A stretch of 64,000 bases of DNA. Origin: a virus. Position 1 is the stretch's first letter; every line of letters starts with the position of its first letter. Below the pieces are notes generated by a model that saw only the letters and a list, made by a program, of their open reading frames with translations, had not been told where the DNA came from and ran no database searches. The stretch spans positions 1 to 64,000 of IMG/VR virus record IMGVR_UViG_3300045988_087149; one strand, 5' to 3'. The position numbers and the translations under genes were made by a program. Shown here piece by piece: positions 3,694 to 18,595 of the stretch.

Positions 3694-4353
3694 ATGGCTA
3701 ATATTTTTACGGCTGGCCCTGCAAGAGCACTATTCTTCTATGGTCAGCAACTAATTGGTGTTGGCAAAACACTTTCCGAGACTGTCTTCGATTCCTCCAT
3801 CACGGGTGAGGAAGTCCGTGGTGGCCCCGGCAATCTACTCTATGGTAAATATTTCCACGATTCCAATCTGAACATTCAGATTACTGACGCAATGTTTAAT
3901 CTACAGTATGTCGCAGCTTCTCTAGGTGTCGATGTAAATCAGGGTGGCGTTTCTCTATACGAGTCTGCAAAGGCTGGCGAAACCGTTGCGGCTGGTGGCA
4001 AGATTACCCTAACTAATACTGCTGTTGCATTTGACGGTGCTATTCTCGCTTGGTATAAGAAGCCCGCAGATGATGACTGGACTGTTGCTACTGTTTCTGA
4101 TAACGCAATCACTGTCCCCGGTGTCACTACTGGCGACCATTACTGTGTCAAGTATTTCTATCAGAACATGAACGCTAAGTCCATTACTATCAAGGCGCAG
4201 TATGTTCCTAAGACTCTGCACCTCGTTCTAATTAACGACCTATATTCTGGCGATGTTGCTAATGTTGCTGCTTCTAGTTCCAAGTATGGCCGTCTCATTA
4301 CTGATATTCCACAGTATCAGCTAGATGGTAAAATTTTTAAGCAAGCTGCTTAA
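3694..4353 (+). CDS. major tail (tube) protein, exon 1. The ORF as read runs a few codons into intron A; the predicted splice is after 4329.
   Basis: GAGGAGGAAA SD. It lies immediately upstream of the chaperone-position genes and the tape measure. The frame stops at 4351-4353 just inside a group I intron core. The tail-tube assignment rests on position plus a C-terminal Ig-like exon; a capsid role is not excluded. Confidence 0.55.
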   Translation: MANIFTAGPARALFFYGQQLIGVGKTLSETVFDSSITGEEVRGGPGNLLYGKYFHDSNLNIQITDAMFNLQYVAASLGVDVNQGGVSLYESAKAGETVAAGGKITLTNTAVAFDGAILAWYKKPADDDWTVATVSDNAITVPGVTTGDHYCVKYFYQNMNAKSITIKAQYVPKTLHLVLINDLYSGDVANVAASSSKYGRLITDIPQYQLDGKIFKQAA

Positions 4354-5590
4354 AATAATAGCCACTTATATATCGTAAGATGTATAAGCTCCGTGTTAAC
4401 TGCTGGCAATCCCTAAAGCTCTTAATACTACAACGTAGAGATGAAATAAGCTCAGGCGTGATATGTTACGAAAGTAGAAAAAAATTAAGAGATGGCGCAT
4501 GGTTAAATCCTAAACGCTTATAATGGGTCTTCAGCATCCAATCCTCGAATAGAGGAAGGTTCAACGACTACCTCCTTGTGGGAGGGTAAGCCCAAGTGGG
4601 CTGAAAAATACGGCTCTTAATTTGTTCATAATTCCCAATTATTATATATAGAAAGGCGGTGAATCAATGTTTGACGAAAATCAACTTGTTAAGATAAAAT
4701 GGCATTCTCATAATAAACAATATTTTATTAAAATGGGGTTGACGTTTACTAAGATTGGTGACGAAATAGAAATCCCTGCAAAAATGTTATCCAAAGAAAG
4801 TCATGCAAGGGTAAAATGTACTTGTGATTATTGTGGAAAAGAATATTACACTAATTACAATGTTTGCAGAAGAAGTCTATTGCGTGGTAAACTATCTTGT
4901 GAGGCGTGTAAGCAAAAGAAACGCGAAGATTCTTTTACGGGGAAATATGGCGTTGGTTCGCCGGGCGCATCTGATGTTTGTAGACAAAGAGCACAAGACA
5001 CCATGATTGATAAATATGGTGGGCGATTTGCGTTACAAACTAAAGAAGGGCAAGAATCTTTTAAGAAATCAATGCTTGAAAAATATGATTGCGACAATCC
5101 AATGAAGTCAAGAGAACTGATGTATAAGGCAAGAATTTCAACATATGAGAATGGAACTAATCCTAGCTCAAGACCGGAACGAGAAGTTATTAAAATGCTA
5201 GAGGAATTATACGGCAAAGACAACTGCGTTCCTGGCTATCCTGTAGGTAGGACAAATTTGGATTGTTTGTTAACTGTAGATGATATTAAGATTGATGTTG
5301 AATATGATGGGAAATATTGGCATCAAGACAAGCTACATGACCAAAAGCGTAATCATTGGTTAATAGCAAATGGATATAAAGTCATACGGATATTGGGAAA
5401 TCCGCGTGATACATTACCAAGTAAAGAACAGCTAAAGGGAGAGGTTGATTATATTTTAGCTGGACATGACTTGGGATATATTGATATGAACGAATAAGAT
5501 GAACATATAGTCTGCTCTCATGCGAAAGTATGAGCAGTTCTTTAAGAACGGCATAGGATTAACGACCCTATGTGAACATATGGCTCTCAG
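4330..5590 (+). mobile_element. group I intron A (IA2-like) carrying a homing-endonuclease ORF
   Basis: R box GGTTCAACGACTACC (4558-4572) and S box ACATATAGTCTGC (5503-5515) can form P7 (GACTA/TAGTC). P7.1/P7.2-type hairpins lie at 4571-4585 and 4590-4601, and 3' hairpins at 5515-5534 and 5553-5573. Candidate P1 is TGGT (4326-4329) / GCCA (4361-4364), with a U-G wobble at the splice site. Boundaries are predicted only. Confidence 0.75.
4667..5497 (+). CDS. intron-encoded homing endonuclease (Zn-ribbon + KYG repeats + DUF559/Vsr-like PD-(D/E)XK nuclease domain)
   Basis: 276 aa. It has CDYCG...CEAC cysteines, tandem ~25-aa KYG.. repeats, and a C-terminal IDVEYDGKYWH..D..R..L..GYKVIRI matching the E-x-DG-x-x-H ... 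GxxVxR pattern of DUF559/Vsr-like nucleases. It sits between the R and S boxes and is a paralogue of 17304-18347. Confidence 0.7.
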   Translation: MFDENQLVKIKWHSHNKQYFIKMGLTFTKIGDEIEIPAKMLSKESHARVKCTCDYCGKEYYTNYNVCRRSLLRGKLSCEACKQKKREDSFTGKYGVGSPGASDVCRQRAQDTMIDKYGGRFALQTKEGQESFKKSMLEKYDCDNPMKSRELMYKARISTYENGTNPSSRPEREVIKMLEELYGKDNCVPGYPVGRTNLDCLLTVDDIKIDVEYDGKYWHQDKLHDQKRNHWLIANGYKVIRILGNPRDTLPSKEQLKGEVDYILAGHDLGYIDMNE

Positions 5591-6019
5591 AACATCTCTT
5601 GGTCTGCAACTTCTACTGCAACCGTTTCTCTAAACGGCTCTGCTCTAGCGATTGATGATGGCTCTTCTTGTGAGGAAGACCCCATCTATGGTACTATGAC
5701 TCAGGAAATCTTTGGCGCAAAGTGGCAGGATGATGTTAAGGCTGTTGCCATTGGCAATGCTGATATTGACCTTGCTAAGAGCGCATCTGAGACTCTACAG
5801 GTCTATGCCGTCTTTGGTGGCGGCGTTGCATCTCGTATGATGGATAATAGCAACTTCAACTTCACGGTTGAAAGTGGTGGCACTTCTGCAAGTGTTAATG
5901 CAAGTGGCGTTGTTACTGCGACCACTACTGATGGTACGGCGGTCATTTCTGTTACGCTGAAAGACGCGGCTGGCAAGCCAACCGATAAGATTGGCTATGC
6001 CAATGTAACAGTCGCTTAA
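5591..6019 (+). CDS. major tail protein, exon 2 (Ig-like/Big_2-type C-terminal domain)
   Basis: The frame is open from 5576 with no SD or start before the ATG at 5696. Sequence ...VYAVFGGG...SGVVTATTTDGTAVISVTL is Ig-like. A strong terminator follows. The 5' end is a predicted splice acceptor (omega-G 5590; alternatives 5574, 5582, 5583). Confidence 0.6.
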   Translation, partial: NISWSATSTATVSLNGSALAIDDGSSCEEDPIYGTMTQEIFGAKWQDDVKAVAIGNADIDLAKSASETLQVYAVFGGGVASRMMDNSNFNFTVESGGTSASVNASGVVTATTTDGTAVISVTLKDAAGKPTDKIGYANVTVA

Positions 6020-16995: not shown

Positions 16996-18428
16996 TAATA
17001 TGCAACAAAAACTATGTATTGAATTGCTGGAAACCCCTAAAGCCATTCGAGCTACAACATAGTCATGAAATATGGACAAGTGTGATATGCAACGAAAGTA
17101 AAAAGAATTGAATGGATGATGTAAGGTTAAATCCTAACCATCGTTATAATGGGCAATCAGCAGCTAAGACCCGAACAGGGTAAAGTTCAACGACTATCCC
17201 GCAAGGGAGTACACTGCAAGCGATTGGCAGTGGAAGTGGTACATTCTTTGATTCAACAAATAACTTGACAATTAAAAAATAAATCTAGAAAGGAGGTTAA
17301 CATATGTTAATACCGGGACAATATACCAAGATGAGATGGCACGCGAGGAACAAATATTATTATATGGAGCGTGGGTATGAGTTTACTAAGATGGGTGATG
17401 AATTTGATGTGAAAGTTGAAGATTTGCCATCTGAGTCTCATGTATATGTAAAGGTGCAGTGTGATTTTTGTGGAGAAATAATTGACGTAAAGTATCAAAA
17501 TTATACTCATCGAGGACTGAAGTCAGATGGATACGCTTGTACAAAATGCAAGTACAAAAAAATACATAATGTAATGCAAGAGGTATATGGCGTTGACGCG
17601 CCGTCACAGATCGATGGATTTTATGAAAAATTTAAAGCAACTTGTCAAGAGAAATATGGAGTAGACCATTATGCCTCAACACAAGAATGCAAAGATAAAA
17701 TTGCTTCAACTTGCATGAAACGATATGAATCTACAAACTATTCATCATCAGATATTGGCAAAGAGCGTATGACGAATATATTTTCAGAAAAGTTTGGAAC
17801 TCCATATCCGTTTGGAAACGAAGAAGTAACAAGAAAACTTGTTGAAACACAAGTCGAAAAATACGGCGGTGTTGGTATGGCGTCTCCATTATTAAGAAAG
17901 AAAATAGAACAAACATGTTTAGATAAGTACGGAACAACAAATTTAGCTCAAGTTCCAGAAATAAATGAGAAGCGAAGAACGACATTATATAAGAATGGAA
18001 CAGCACCATCATCCAAACCGCAGGTTTTATTAAATGATAAATTAAAAGAAATATATGGTAATGCCGAGTTAAACTACCCGTGTGGCAATCTCTCTTTGGA
18101 CTCCATGGTAATTGTTGATGGATGTAAGATAGACGTAGAATACGATTGTTGGTATTGGCATAAAAATAAAAAGAAGCAAGATTATCAACGAGATTGGGTT
18201 GTTAGACAAGCGGGATATAAGGTGCTTAGAGTTAAAGGTTATACAAAAATACCATCAGACGAGCAAATAAAAGAAGCGATTGATTATTTAGTCAAGGATA
18301 ATCATGAGTTTAGTAGAATAATTGTTGAATCAGAGAAAAAGATATAGTCTATACTTATAAGAAATTATAAGATGTCATATAATTTATATGACTGACAAGG
18401 AGGTAGCGTTTCTTGTTGAATATTTTAG
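16973..18428 (+). mobile_element. group I intron C (IA2-like) carrying a homing-endonuclease ORF
   Basis: R box GTTCAACGACTATCC (17185-17199) and S box GATATAGTCT (18341-18350) form P7 GACTA/TAGTC. A P7.1 hairpin TCCCgcaaGGGA and a P7.2 hairpin CACTGC..GCAGTG are present. The core shares extensive identical blocks with intron A. Candidate P1 is GACT (16969-16972) / GGTC (16982-16985) with a U-G wobble. The 3' boundary is uncertain (G18406, 18408 or 18428). Confidence 0.75.
17304..18347 (+). CDS. intron-encoded homing endonuclease, paralogue of 4667-5497
   Basis: 347 aa with AAAGGAGG SD and the same architecture: N-terminal W-H-x-x-N..GY.FTKMGDEF..CDFCG Zn-ribbon, more KYG repeats, and C-terminal IDVEYDCWYWH..D..RD..V..AGYKVLRV. 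Its stop codon TAG (18345-18347) lies inside the S box. Confidence 0.7.
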   Translation: MLIPGQYTKMRWHARNKYYYMERGYEFTKMGDEFDVKVEDLPSESHVYVKVQCDFCGEIIDVKYQNYTHRGLKSDGYACTKCKYKKIHNVMQEVYGVDAPSQIDGFYEKFKATCQEKYGVDHYASTQECKDKIASTCMKRYESTNYSSSDIGKERMTNIFSEKFGTPYPFGNEEVTRKLVETQVEKYGGVGMASPLLRKKIEQTCLDKYGTTNLAQVPEINEKRRTTLYKNGTAPSSKPQVLLNDKLKEIYGNAELNYPCGNLSLDSMVIVDGCKIDVEYDCWYWHKNKKKQDYQRDWVVRQAGYKVLRVKGYTKIPSDEQIKEAIDYLVKDNHEFSRIIVESEKKI

Positions 18429-18595
18429 GGAACAGTTCAGAATGGCTCTGTATCATCACAGGCAATCCTCAGACGGACTATGAATCAAATTATGGCATGG
18501 GCATTCAGCGTATGACGGCAGAATGGACACAAACAGGCGACCCCAAAGTAAAGGCTGACCTTTACGCAAATGGGCTAATCCCACGGGAGGATTAA
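18429..18595 (+). CDS. minor tail/baseplate protein, exon 2
   Basis: The frame is open from 18407. The joined product would read ...KPKMLKD-W-NSSEWLCIITGNPQ.... Caveat: an AAGGAGG at 18397-18403 plus TTG at 18413 could also allow independent translation. Confidence 0.5.

Follow-up and report, generated by a model that had tools for sequence, protein, structure and literature searches.

Group I introns very probably split three tail genes of a gut phage

Background

Some group I introns carry a cargo other than an endonuclease, such as the fungal mitochondrial rRNA introns encoding rps3. Among the endonucleases themselves, the EDxHD or Vsr-like homing enzymes are exemplified by I-Bth0305I from Bacillus phage 0305phi8-36. 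An accumulation of related introns in a single phage gene was reportedly described by Landthaler and Shub in 1999, with three related group I introns in orf142 of Staphylococcus phage Twort. This gene encodes the tail tube protein (PMC11878797). The introns of T4 td, nrdB and sunY and those of the Bastillevirinae and Twortvirinae belong to subgroups IA2/IA3 and contain homing endonuclease ORFs, the endonucleases of the Bastillevirinae terminase introns being of the VSR superfamily (PHROG 559) (PMC11878797).

Three interrupted genes in the tail module

The window analysed here is the whole 64,000-nt stretch of a virus record. On its + strand, introns A, B and C are very probably group I introns splitting three essential tail-module genes of a gut phage, in agreement with the initial annotation. 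By sequence comparison, all three proposed introns are real and exon joining gives back proteins that related phages encode without interruption: for all three genes, the joined product is one contiguous match to relatives. The exon-1 frame reaches an in-frame stop 23-48 nt inside each intron and, once the late tail operon is transcribed, RNA splicing would be needed for full-length major tail protein, tape measure and 302-aa baseplate-module protein. The host genes, initially described as consecutive, are separated by four ORFs (first to second) and by three ORFs (second to third). The Pol III alpha, NrdD and DnaB-like genes are each a single uninterrupted ORF, the replication genes being indeed intact as first noted. 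None of the introns reaches the curated Rfam threshold: the Intron_gpI cut-off is 50 bits, intron C scores 37.8 bits (E 1e-6), and the Rfam search gave no match for A and B. Elsewhere in the 64 kb, neither an additional copy of the intron family nor another group I match in Rfam was found.

Intron C and the 302-aa baseplate-module protein

The most regular case is intron C (16973-18428, + strand; nhmmer 260 bits), a group I intron with P7.1/P7.2. It lies between exon 1 (16231-16972), which ends at the first base of codon 248, and exon 2 (18429-18595). Of the possible junctions, the canonical U/G one scores highest, and at the DNA level the exons join exactly: in P1, GACU (16969-16972) pairs with GGUC (16982-16985), with a U16972·G pair at the splice site, P7 associates 17192-17196 with 18345-18349, and omega-G is at 18428. 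An extra 3' Rfam piece was detected at 18338-18369. All 18 relatives (18/18) have an uninterrupted gene of 302-303 aa reading ...KPKMLKD W NSSEW... across the junction. In the unspliced ORF, the match to the PHROG profile (phrog_27355) breaks off at position 246 of 304, whereas the spliced 302-aa protein is a one-piece match to Enterocloster phages, where its gene immediately precedes that of the annotated baseplate hub protein. This protein, called a baseplate protein in the initial annotation, is encoded next to the baseplate hub gene in the tail/baseplate module. The P8 loop of intron C contains the gene of the putative homing endonuclease C (347 aa; 17304-18347, + strand), the stop codon of which overlaps P7'. 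This protein matches Pfam DUF7487 (85 bits) and PHROG 12131, its DUF559 and MTES_1575 matches being below their cut-offs.

Intron A and the major tail protein

Intron A (about 4329-5583, + strand; nhmmer 307 bits), also a group I intron with P7.1/P7.2, has limits defined by homology. It separates exon 1 (3694-4328) from exon 2 (5584-6019), the frame of which is open from 5576 and conserved in relatives. The spliced 356-aa product is a single-piece match to the PMBT24 'major tail protein' and to the CB457/CB473 phages; six IMG/VR relatives are uninterrupted across LDG/SQN (a slash marks the splice site), and exon 2 gives GSQNISWSATS for G SQN LAWSATS in relatives. The landmarks of the ribozyme are the internal guide sequence (IGS) GCCA at 4361-4364, P2 at 4365-4388, P3 (4391-4397 with 4607-4613) and P7 (4566-4570 with 5508-5512). 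Its P8 loop harbours the gene of the putative homing endonuclease A (276 aa; 4667-5497, + strand), with matches to Pfam DUF7487 (40.2 bits), to DUF559 (22.0 bits, exceeding the cut-off of 20.6), to PHROG 12131 'homing endonuclease' and to phrog_559.

The exact 5' end of intron A is less conventional. In a junction enumeration, the junction restoring the homologous protein has a G, and no U, before the 5' splice site, so that exon 1 ends at G4328 by homology, or at T4329 with a canonical 5' splice site; canonical limits for the intron would be 4330-5590 or 4336-5590. The GGT/AAA donor context initially proposed for two introns does occur, at 4327-4332 and 8235-8240; it is structurally sound for B, whereas the A junction falls, by homology, one nucleotide upstream. 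Judging from their sequences, A-type introns seem to have their 5' splice site shifted upstream by one nucleotide relative to the usual wobble U. Such a G is an anomaly: it conflicts with the canonical mechanism and counts against the explanation we consider best.

It is therefore conceivable, with a low probability, that intron A splices poorly, never, or at a shifted site, so that the major tail protein would be shortened or altered. Two versions of such an outcome can be drawn: a 212-residue tube domain followed by seven intron-encoded residues, devoid of the C-terminal extension, or a major tail protein variant with a 2-residue change. Indeed, no placement combines U at -1, G at omega and the homologous length; of the canonical alternatives, 4329/5591 deletes two residues and 4335/5591 swaps SQ for KI. 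The intron also lies at residue 212, downstream of the sole family match (PHROG 2729, residues 25-178), and the tube domain would therefore survive truncation. However, the ribozyme helices are intact and covarying, and exon 2 is still open and conserved. Moreover, five independent A-type insertions all restore the exact homologue length with the same G/U...G/ rule, and the position that follows the 3' GG varies as a codon third position would.

Ribozyme families and origin of the introns

By sequence and covariation, A and C are members of a single IA-like ribozyme family, in which P1-P9 and P7.1/P7.2 are accompanied by a long P5 extension. Their 5' halves share 61% identity, and the longest identical blocks reach about 13 nt. 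Among the 13 members of this family, 93.5% of cells are paired, versus 34-48% in slid controls, and 44 of 55 pairs are compensatory, versus 11-18; none of 500 shuffles matched the observed values. P7 covaries (GACUA/UAGUC, GAAUA/UAUUC, GAUUA/UAAUC), as do P8 and P9. Their endonucleases are paralogous to each other (32-35% identity, E 5e-32) and, at the family level, would be homing endonucleases of the Vsr/DUF559 type; the C-terminal DUF559/Vsr-like region reads VEYDGKYWHQD in endonuclease A and VEYDCWYWHKN in endonuclease C. No sequence relative of these proteins was found in any PDB chain.

Intron B was first grouped with A and C on the basis of shared blocks and of a common P7.1/P7.2 layout, which holds for A and C only. 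Between P7 and P3' of intron B there is just ACA, without P7.1/P7.2, and the sole segment shared with A and C is a block of about 110 nt in the P5 extension (nhmmer E 1.3e-6); pairwise local alignments of B to A or C remain within the range of shuffled controls. Covarying helices are present in both the A/C and B families, around different cores. In the pseudoknotted structure of the B family, 98.5% of cells are paired, versus 28-43% in slid controls, with 22 compensatory pairs versus 0-4, P3 and P7 pseudoknot pairs included; C63-G290 and A282-U323 covary. B is, on this structural evidence, a separate group I ribozyme with a more compact core, featuring a canonical P1 (U·G), P10, a P3/P7 pseudoknot and omega-G.

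The distribution among relatives also separates them. The C site is occupied in none of 18 relatives (0/18) and the A site clearly in one of 17, six being uninterrupted and L034 being cut off upstream, whereas B is found in the same tape-measure codon in 34/34 related contigs; contig 084189 has B and lacks A and C. Since intron B is present in every relative, an intron-less allele is absent within the clade. A and C, sporadic and missing from phages 86-98% identical in the host genes, would behave as mobile elements, presumably homing through their endonucleases.

The nearest relative of A, an intron devoid of any ORF, occupies the same site in phage L035 (76% identity); those of C are introns of Enterocloster phage CB457P2 and tape-measure introns of other contigs (73-77%; in megablast, 82% over 230 nt). 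Both A and C are thus closer to introns of other phages than to one another, which argues for a shared intron pool; such a pool of mobile introns fits better, from these comparisons, than recent spread within the genome. In CB457P2, the endonuclease carried by the C-type ribozyme is of the GIY-YIG type and is placed at another position. The L035 major tail gene contains at least five introns and a 42-nt micro-exon. This pool would have given rise to a heavy colonisation of tail genes in a clade of gut siphophages of roughly 90-100 kb, to which the Enterocloster phages PMBT24 and CB457 are related.

The initial annotation proposed instead that one lineage was duplicated within the genome into three tail genes, followed by cargo divergence, with splicing as a checkpoint or host-range determinant. 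We regard this as quite unlikely. It could account for the homologous A/C ribozymes with paralogous endonucleases, for the P5-extension block common to B and A/C, and for the location of all three introns in one late operon while the replication genes are intron-free. It is opposed by the closer similarity of A and C to introns of other phages, by the low identity of the endonucleases (about 33%), by the different core of B, and by the occurrence of the same families at many other sites, and in another gene, in relatives; the pairwise identities suggest that the three introns are not a clade of their own. As near-identical phages lack both A and C, these introns look dispensable for regulation, and none of the comparisons supports a checkpoint or host-range role. 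The cargo itself was correctly described: a pair of paralogous endonucleases on the one hand, a membrane-protein cassette on the other.

Intron B, the tape measure and the cassette

Intron B (8238-9036, + strand), very probably a spliced group I intron that, like A and C, would come from the shared pool, separates tape measure exon 1 (7860-8237; 126 codons, ending ACC GGT) from exon 2 (9037-14085; PhageMin_Tail domain). In P1, the exon sequence ACCGGU (8232-8237) pairs with the IGS GCCGGU (8255-8260), the U·G pair being invariant in 24 sequences; the P10 guide UCUGA (8250-8254) is complementary to the exon 2 start UCAGA, with five Watson-Crick pairs. The other landmarks are P2 (8261-8283), P3 (8292-8295 with 8520-8523), P7 (8511-8515 with 8552-8556), P8 (8525-8529 with 8540-8544), P9 (about 8562-8576) and omega-G (9036). 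After an invariant G, exon 2 starts in relatives with TCAGAG, TCAGAC, TCGGAT or TCAGAA, a codon-like variation (SE or SD). The spliced product and the PMBT24 tape measure align without a single gap, 171 aa across the junction match, in one piece, a 513-nt stretch in the tape measure genes of six Enterocloster phages, splicing raises the PF10145 score from 62.6 to 74.2 bits in one stretch spanning the junction, and TIGR01760 covers residues 77-326 likewise.

A long-range stem associates GUUAUAGAU (8603-8611) with AUUUAUAAC (9026-9034); the relative L023 has UUACAAA with UUUGUAA at these positions, a compensatory U-A to C-G change. This stem would enclose the ORF cassette and return the 3' splice site to the core, the promoter and membrane-protein genes sitting in a 3' peripheral loop that the stem would close. 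No endonuclease was found in intron B; it carries instead a predicted promoter and a tandem pair of genes, each for a small single-pass membrane protein. The putative sigma-70-like promoter (8577-8605, + strand; TTGACA, 17 nt, TGc TATGTT) has 10/12 consensus matches plus the TG extension; its -35 hexamer (TTGACA) is kept in most B-type copies and the -10 region is variable, the most divergent copies (L042, L047, L049, L050, L060 and L061) deviating at both. Membrane protein 1 (63 aa; 8632-8823, + strand), preceded by a GGAGG Shine-Dalgarno sequence, has an acidic, W-rich tail ending WGKL, and B introns of relatives carry paralogous ORFs. The start of membrane protein 2 (67 aa; 8823-9026, + strand) overlaps the ORF 1 stop (TAATG). 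Both have a strong hydrophobic N-terminal helix, predicted to be transmembrane in protein 1 (Kyte-Doolittle maxima of 2.65, over 19 residues, and 2.06, respectively). Membrane protein 2 has 386 homologues; the 120 listed are of 61-67 aa, none of them with a Pfam domain or credible name. Several homologues lie on contigs of about 78-97 kb. With this loop content, intron B would therefore be the carrier of an independently transcribed cassette, presumably with an accessory role.

That region B is left unspliced, as an intergenic accessory-gene ('moron') cassette with a structured RNA between two tape-measure polypeptides (141 aa, and 1680 aa from ATG 9043), is very improbable: the conservation of this ATG in all relatives, 6 nt downstream of the 3' splice site, the promoter of its own, the presence in every relative and the empty Rfam search would suit such a cassette, but the invariant P1 U·G exactly at the codon boundary, the P10 of five pairs adjoining P1 in the guide sequence, the invariant G9036 followed by codon-like variation, the covarying P3/P7 pseudoknot, P6, P8 and P9, the single conserved domain aligned without gaps across the junction, and the lack of a Shine-Dalgarno sequence upstream of ATG 9043 all speak against it. 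There is a small probability that the large tape-measure fragment is translated independently from this ATG.

Comparison with known systems

The cargo of intron B recalls the rps3 introns, with expressed-looking genes unrelated to mobility, and phage moron genes, with its own predicted promoter. Unlike these cases, it is a tandem pair of small membrane-protein genes, placed inside an intron of an essential structural gene and fixed across the clade. A literature search, which was not systematic, found no phage intron with comparable non-endonuclease cargo, and we know of no described phage example of such a cargo-bearing intron, without making this a systematic claim. Endonucleases A and C resemble the I-Bth0305I type by their DUF559/Vsr-like C-terminal region and by being intron-encoded in a phage, which makes them candidate members only; they differ by N-terminal DUF7487 repeats and the lack of a PDB chain match.

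Like the T4 and Bastillevirinae introns, A and C have P7.1/P7.2 between P7 and P3', an endonuclease ORF in a peripheral loop, an early in-frame stop and a sporadic distribution among close relatives, and endonuclease A matches phrog_559, as do the Bastillevirinae terminase-intron endonucleases. They depart from them by the long P5 extension and by Rfam scores below threshold. Those introns lie mainly in DNA-metabolism and terminase genes, whereas in the present phage such genes are uninterrupted and the introns have entered tail genes instead. Another parallel is Twort orf142, where several related IA-type introns, some of them ORF-less, also occupy a late structural tail gene of a large Firmicutes phage, the relatives of the present phage holding even more introns (L035). 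The differences lie in the phage clade and host (a gut Lachnospiraceae-type siphophage), in the endonuclease family, in the non-endonuclease cargo of one intron, in splicing being deduced here from sequence, and in the fact that three different tail genes are hit.

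Junctions of the three split tail genes

The tail module lies on the + strand (3694-18595), and three of its genes give way to non-coding sequence, beyond which the frame continues. These genes encode the major tail protein (intron A), the tape measure protein (intron B) and a 302-aa baseplate-module protein, phrog_27355 (intron C). The predicted peptides across the joined exons are LDGSQNISW for A, GRTGSEMVEAATNFR for the tape measure and MLKDWNSSEW for C. The initial annotation was essentially right in placing three introns in tail genes, and the comparative evidence for them is strong. 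No close relative of this phage is found among GenBank phages. Its kin at the protein level are the ~100-kb Enterocloster bolteae siphophages PMBT24, CB457P1/P2 and CB473P1-3.

As judged by comparison with relatives, the junction of intron C (16973..18428) is unambiguous and canonical. The 302-303-aa gene is in one piece in 18/18 IMG/VR relatives of the upstream ORF, where it reads ...KPKMLKD-W-NSSEWLCIITGNPQ... The intron-less DNA of relatives is AAAGACT↓GGAACAG (arrows mark junctions), and in the window, the 5' edge is AAAGACT↓TAACAT... and the 3' edge ...TTTTAG↓GGAACAG. In P1, GACU pairs with GGUC of the guide, with U16972 opposite the guide G, and omega-G is G18428. Exhaustive enumeration of the possible junctions ranks the canonical U/G junction first. 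An alternative 3' end at 18374 was rejected, since the joined frame runs into a stop and relatives set the site at 18428.

The insert of type B is found at one and the same tape-measure codon in every relative examined, 11 of them identified first. A motif scan then retrieved 34 contigs, each having a single B-type copy, and the tape-measure codons ...(G/A)RTG precede every copy with a recovered 5' flank. The 5' end does not vary: P1 is formed by exon ACCGGU and guide GCCGGU, the U8237.G8255 pair being invariant in 24 sequences. Directly 5' of the guide segment, UCUGA (8250-8254) is the perfect complement of UCAGA, the first five bases past G9036, and this predicted pairing is a textbook P10. 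G9036, the omega-G, does not vary among relatives; downstream of it, they have TCAGAG, TCAGAC, TCGGAT or TCAGAA, which are synonymous or conservative codons (SE or SD). A 3' splice site between 9042 and 9043 was rejected because the base ahead of the ATG varies freely across relatives (G, C, T, A), whereas G9036 combines invariance with codon-like variation downstream and the P10 match. Joining 8237 to 9037 gives ...VGRTG-SEMVEAATNF..., and the spliced tape measure then matches PF10145 in one stretch over residues 116-310 (74.2 bits, versus 62.6 for exon 2 alone) and TIGR01760 in a single stretch over residues 77-326. A junction-centred query of 177 aa matched six cultured Enterocloster phages, each in one piece of exactly 513 nt, and the spliced junction aligns with the PMBT24 tape measure with 0 gaps (RTADEMVEAATEF versus RTGSEMVEAATNF).

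Other ORFs of the tail module were also recorded. Two repeat proteins look like receptor-binding or carbohydrate-binding modules from their sequences: an 873-aa protein 3' of intron C (18599-21220), with two long internal repeats (LP[DS]GYT[QE]LEYIQS...YIDTGFKPNQ[ND]T...), and the product of a 221-aa ORF (14422-15087) with three short Y..GD.V...G..Y.S repeats. Between the major tail and tape measure genes, the ORF at 7335-7856 (N-terminus MSRKVNMVICGLDASTSCTGWSIF) encodes a product that by eye resembles a RuvC-like resolvase, which is unexpected in mid tail module.

Two kinds of group I ribozyme

At the curated threshold, Rfam gives no hit anywhere in the 64 kb. In E-value mode, one group I match was obtained, corresponding to intron C (16963-17250 plus a 3' piece at 18338-18369), with 37.8 bits (E 1e-6); the RF00028 gathering score of 50 bits is a detection threshold and no mechanistic criterion. 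Introns A and B gave no Rfam match, B also when searched alone. Phage introns are under-represented in the RF00028 model (PMC11878797). Relatedness within the A/C family was judged with nhmmer and explicit pair counts. The nhmmer profile, built from A, C and one ORF-less homologue, has exactly three matches within the window: intron A (4331-4625, 307 bits), intron C (16971-17248, 260 bits) and intron B (8303-8438, 25.8 bits, E 1.3e-6). Outside the window, relatives yield numerous matches and Enterocloster phage CB457P2 a single one.

An alignment covering P2 to P3' was made of 13 distinct A/C-type copies. Their common fold comprises P2, P3, P4, P5, two P5-extension helices, P6, P6a, P7.1 and P7.2. 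Standard pairs fill 93.5% of the cells, versus 34-48% with partners slid, and 44/55 pairs are changed on both sides (11-18 in controls); none of 500 shuffles attained the observed values. P3 is compensatory at 6/7 pairs, P4-P6 are supported, and P7 occurs as three pair types (GACUA/UAGUC, GAAUA/UAUUC and GAUUA/UAAUC). In the 3' halves, the P8 and P9 pairing is conserved despite differing sequences. From the covariation of the core and of P7, P8 and P9, A and C are thus identified as complete group I ribozymes of IA type, IA2-like in their predicted fold. Only A and C have P7.1/P7.2 inserted between P7 and P3'; here, helices 11-13 are compensatory at 10/10 pairs.

The P7.1/P7.2 layout had been attributed to all three introns, and it does not extend to B: there, P7 and P3' are separated by just ACA (8517-8519), so both helices are absent. 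An alignment of 24 distinct B-type sequences supports P1, P2, P3 (8292-8295 with 8520-8523), P4, P6, P7 (8511-8515 with 8552-8556), P8 and P9. Paired cells reach 98.5%, versus 28-43% in slid controls, with 22 compensatory pairs versus 0-4. The P3 pair C63-G290 changes to U-A together in 4 sequences, and the P7 pair A282-U323 becomes G-C in 4 sequences and C-G in 2; compensatory pairs are also present in P6, P8 and P9. RNAalifold paired positions 61-64 with an upstream GGGC, and this was dropped because C63 covaries perfectly with G290, the GGGC past P7 being that of P3. Resemblance of B to the A/C family is limited to the P5 extension, and pairwise local alignment of B to A or C does not rise above shuffled controls.

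Putative endonucleases and a membrane-protein cassette as cargo

The ORFs within introns A and C encode putative homing endonucleases of 276 aa (4667..5497) and 347 aa (17304..18347), both located in the P8 loop; in C, the stop codon overlaps P7'. These proteins are paralogous (32-35% identity, E 5e-32), and a third paralogue lies in the site-23 intron of relatives. Both contain DUF7487 repeats, above cut-off in each, and a C-terminal DUF559/Vsr-like region, for which endonuclease A scores 22.0 bits (cut-off 20.6) and endonuclease C 17.1 bits, under cut-off. Both match PHROG 12131 'homing endonuclease' (E 1e-18 to 1e-22). NCBIfam gave no match for either endonuclease or for the small ORFs of B, and a PDB sequence search with endonuclease C gave no hit.

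The cargo of B is of another type. Downstream of a predicted sigma-70-like promoter, TTGACA-17-TGcTATGTT, come a Shine-Dalgarno sequence and a pair of ORFs (63 and 67 aa) that overlap. A strongly hydrophobic N-terminal helix is present in both products, whose charged tails end in a D-x-W-G motif. The -35 hexamer TTGACA is kept in most copies and the -10 varies, the most divergent copies differing at both. For the second ORF, 386 homologues were retrieved; the 120 that are listed measure 61-67 aa, and none of these has a domain or credible name. One to three such small-protein paralogues are found per relative, one relative also having an endonuclease-like ORF. A long-range stem (8603-8611 with 9026-9034), with a compensatory change in the related contig L023, closes off the cassette. 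Intron B could be a domesticated, endonuclease-free intron, kept as an expression platform for a promoter-driven membrane-protein cassette.

Predicted promoters are frequent in introns of this clade, as in B. Perfect sigma-70 consensus promoters (TTGACA, 17 nt, TATAAT) occur in two related contigs, L028 (about 5750-5800) and L035 (about 5790-5820), within P6 or P8 loops of family members, one of them ORF-less.

Distribution among relatives

Near-identical phages are polymorphic for the presence of introns A and C, an indirect sign of possible homing by the putative endonucleases. Compared with the window, contig 084189 has 98% identity in the baseplate-module protein and 86% in the complete major tail protein (93% for exon 1); it is without A and C, and B is present. 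The C site is unoccupied in 18/18 relatives. At the A site, clear occupancy is seen in L035 alone, with an ORF-less copy 76% identical to A, and six relatives are uninterrupted; L034 cannot be scored because its contig stops short of the upstream part of the gene. Family members occupy other sites of the major tail gene in relatives, at residues 23/24 and about 50. In the tape measure of relatives L021-L036, breaks are found at about 97, 195/196 and 242/243 besides the fixed B site at 126/127, and several of them hold A/C-family ribozymes. The major tail gene of L035 (IMGVR_UViG_3300045988_128355, 5400-7900) contains at least five group I introns, at 5502-5898, 5994-6313, 6328-6620 (Rfam 58.7 bits, above threshold), 6674-7007 and 7440-7837, with a 42-nt micro-exon encoding KYFHDSNLAVTLTD between two of them.

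At 73-77% identity, the nearest relatives of C are introns of CB457P2 and introns located in tape measure genes of other phages. A megablast match at 17014-17243 likewise corresponds to the core of C against an unannotated intron of Enterocloster phages. In CB457P2 (OP172754.1, 7670-10285), an unannotated C-type ribozyme (8438-8736) carries a GIY-YIG/NUMOD3 endonuclease (8887-9666) downstream of P9. It interrupts a gene other than that split by C, and this gene is deposited in GenBank as two hypothetical proteins. The tape measure of CB457P1 was likewise reported as two ORFs flanking an unrelated ORF, with no introns recognised (PMC11035940).

The initial annotation saw a single lineage spread within this genome, a view at odds with C being closer to introns of other phages and with A being 76% identical to that of L035. 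The distribution and these sequence comparisons fit a common pool of mobile introns that endonucleases invaded independently; a recent within-genome duplication does not fit them. The accompanying proposal of a regulatory checkpoint on tail assembly finds no support here and is set aside.

An anomalous junction in A-type introns

U(-1).G is a near-universal rule of group I splicing. Intron A (about 4329..5583) has the edges GATGGT↓AAAA (5') and ATATGGC↓TCTCAG (3'), so ATGG stands at both ends. The six uninterrupted relatives read ...QYQLDG-SQN-LAWSATS..., and the spliced 356-aa protein is a one-piece match to Enterocloster phage major tail proteins. All placements within plus or minus 14 nt were scored against intron-less homologues. 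Those of homologous length are G↓U...G↓ (4328↓5584 or 4327↓5583), U/C, U/U, A/A and G/U, with no U/G among them. Canonical U/G placements require a 2-residue deletion (4329↓5591) or other changes and score lower; 4329↓5591, 4335↓5591 and 4334↓5584 were all outscored by the homology-defined set. A UGGU/GCCA helix is present, yet homology puts the splice site 1 nt upstream of its U, with G5583 as omega-G. The homologous L035 intron is also without any canonical in-frame option of the same length.

With the control introns (C, B, that of contig L029 and the C-type intron of L028), canonical U/G came at or near the top. The A-type set comprised five independent insertions (window A, L035_7440, L035_6674, L035_5502 and the site-23 intron). 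U/G entered the top-scoring set in 0/5; all five show G↓U...G↓, with the intron opening on the U paired to the guide G (UGGU/GCCA or AUGU/GCAU). The base past the 3' GG varies as would the third position of a codon (GGC in the window, GGT in L035). The final 1-4 nt of the intron repeat the end of exon 1, so one guide sequence can pair with both junctions.

The A-type subfamily (A and at least four other sites in relatives) may have its 5' splice site 1 nt upstream of the guide wobble U. In that case, exon 1 would end in a G engaged in a Watson-Crick pair, and the intron would start with the wobble U. Either A-type introns depart from the canonical 5' splice site in this way, or the mature products would be slightly unlike their intron-less homologues. 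If true, the upstream site breaks with the U(-1).G rule, and if borne out in RNA, the anomaly is relevant to 5' splice site choice. The displaced site and, separately, the domestication of B as an endonuclease-free expression platform are considered less likely than not.

Significance and comparison with known phage introns

The chief points of interest are the clade-scale targeting of tail genes, a fixed intron with promoter and membrane-protein cargo, and the anomalous junction of A-type introns. Intron B indicates that a group I intron with a promoter-driven non-endonuclease cassette can nonetheless reach fixation. These introns are overlooked by current tools, being sub-threshold in Rfam and split in published annotations, where the pieces appear as separate hypothetical proteins in Enterocloster phage genomes. 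For these abundant gut phages, this leads to misjudged tape measure lengths, tail gene content and protein clustering. A literature search found no description of tail-gene introns in this phage group.

Phage group I introns are mostly known from DNA-metabolism genes. Here, the replication genes of the window are intron-free and three tail genes are split. With this tail-gene targeting and five or more introns in one gene of a relative, the clade lends itself naturally to the study of how introns spread through structural genes. The replication set includes Pol III alpha, anaerobic NrdD, DnaB-like, RecD-like and RecJ-like proteins and a primase, in agreement with the set reported for PMBT24 (PMC11035940). 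In all three introns, a stop codon in the exon-1 frame lies 23-48 nt into the intron, upstream of the catalytic core, at 4351-4353 (A), 8283-8285 (B) and 16993-16995 (C). These early in-frame stops agree with those of classical phage introns, in which such a stop bars ribosomes from the ribozyme.
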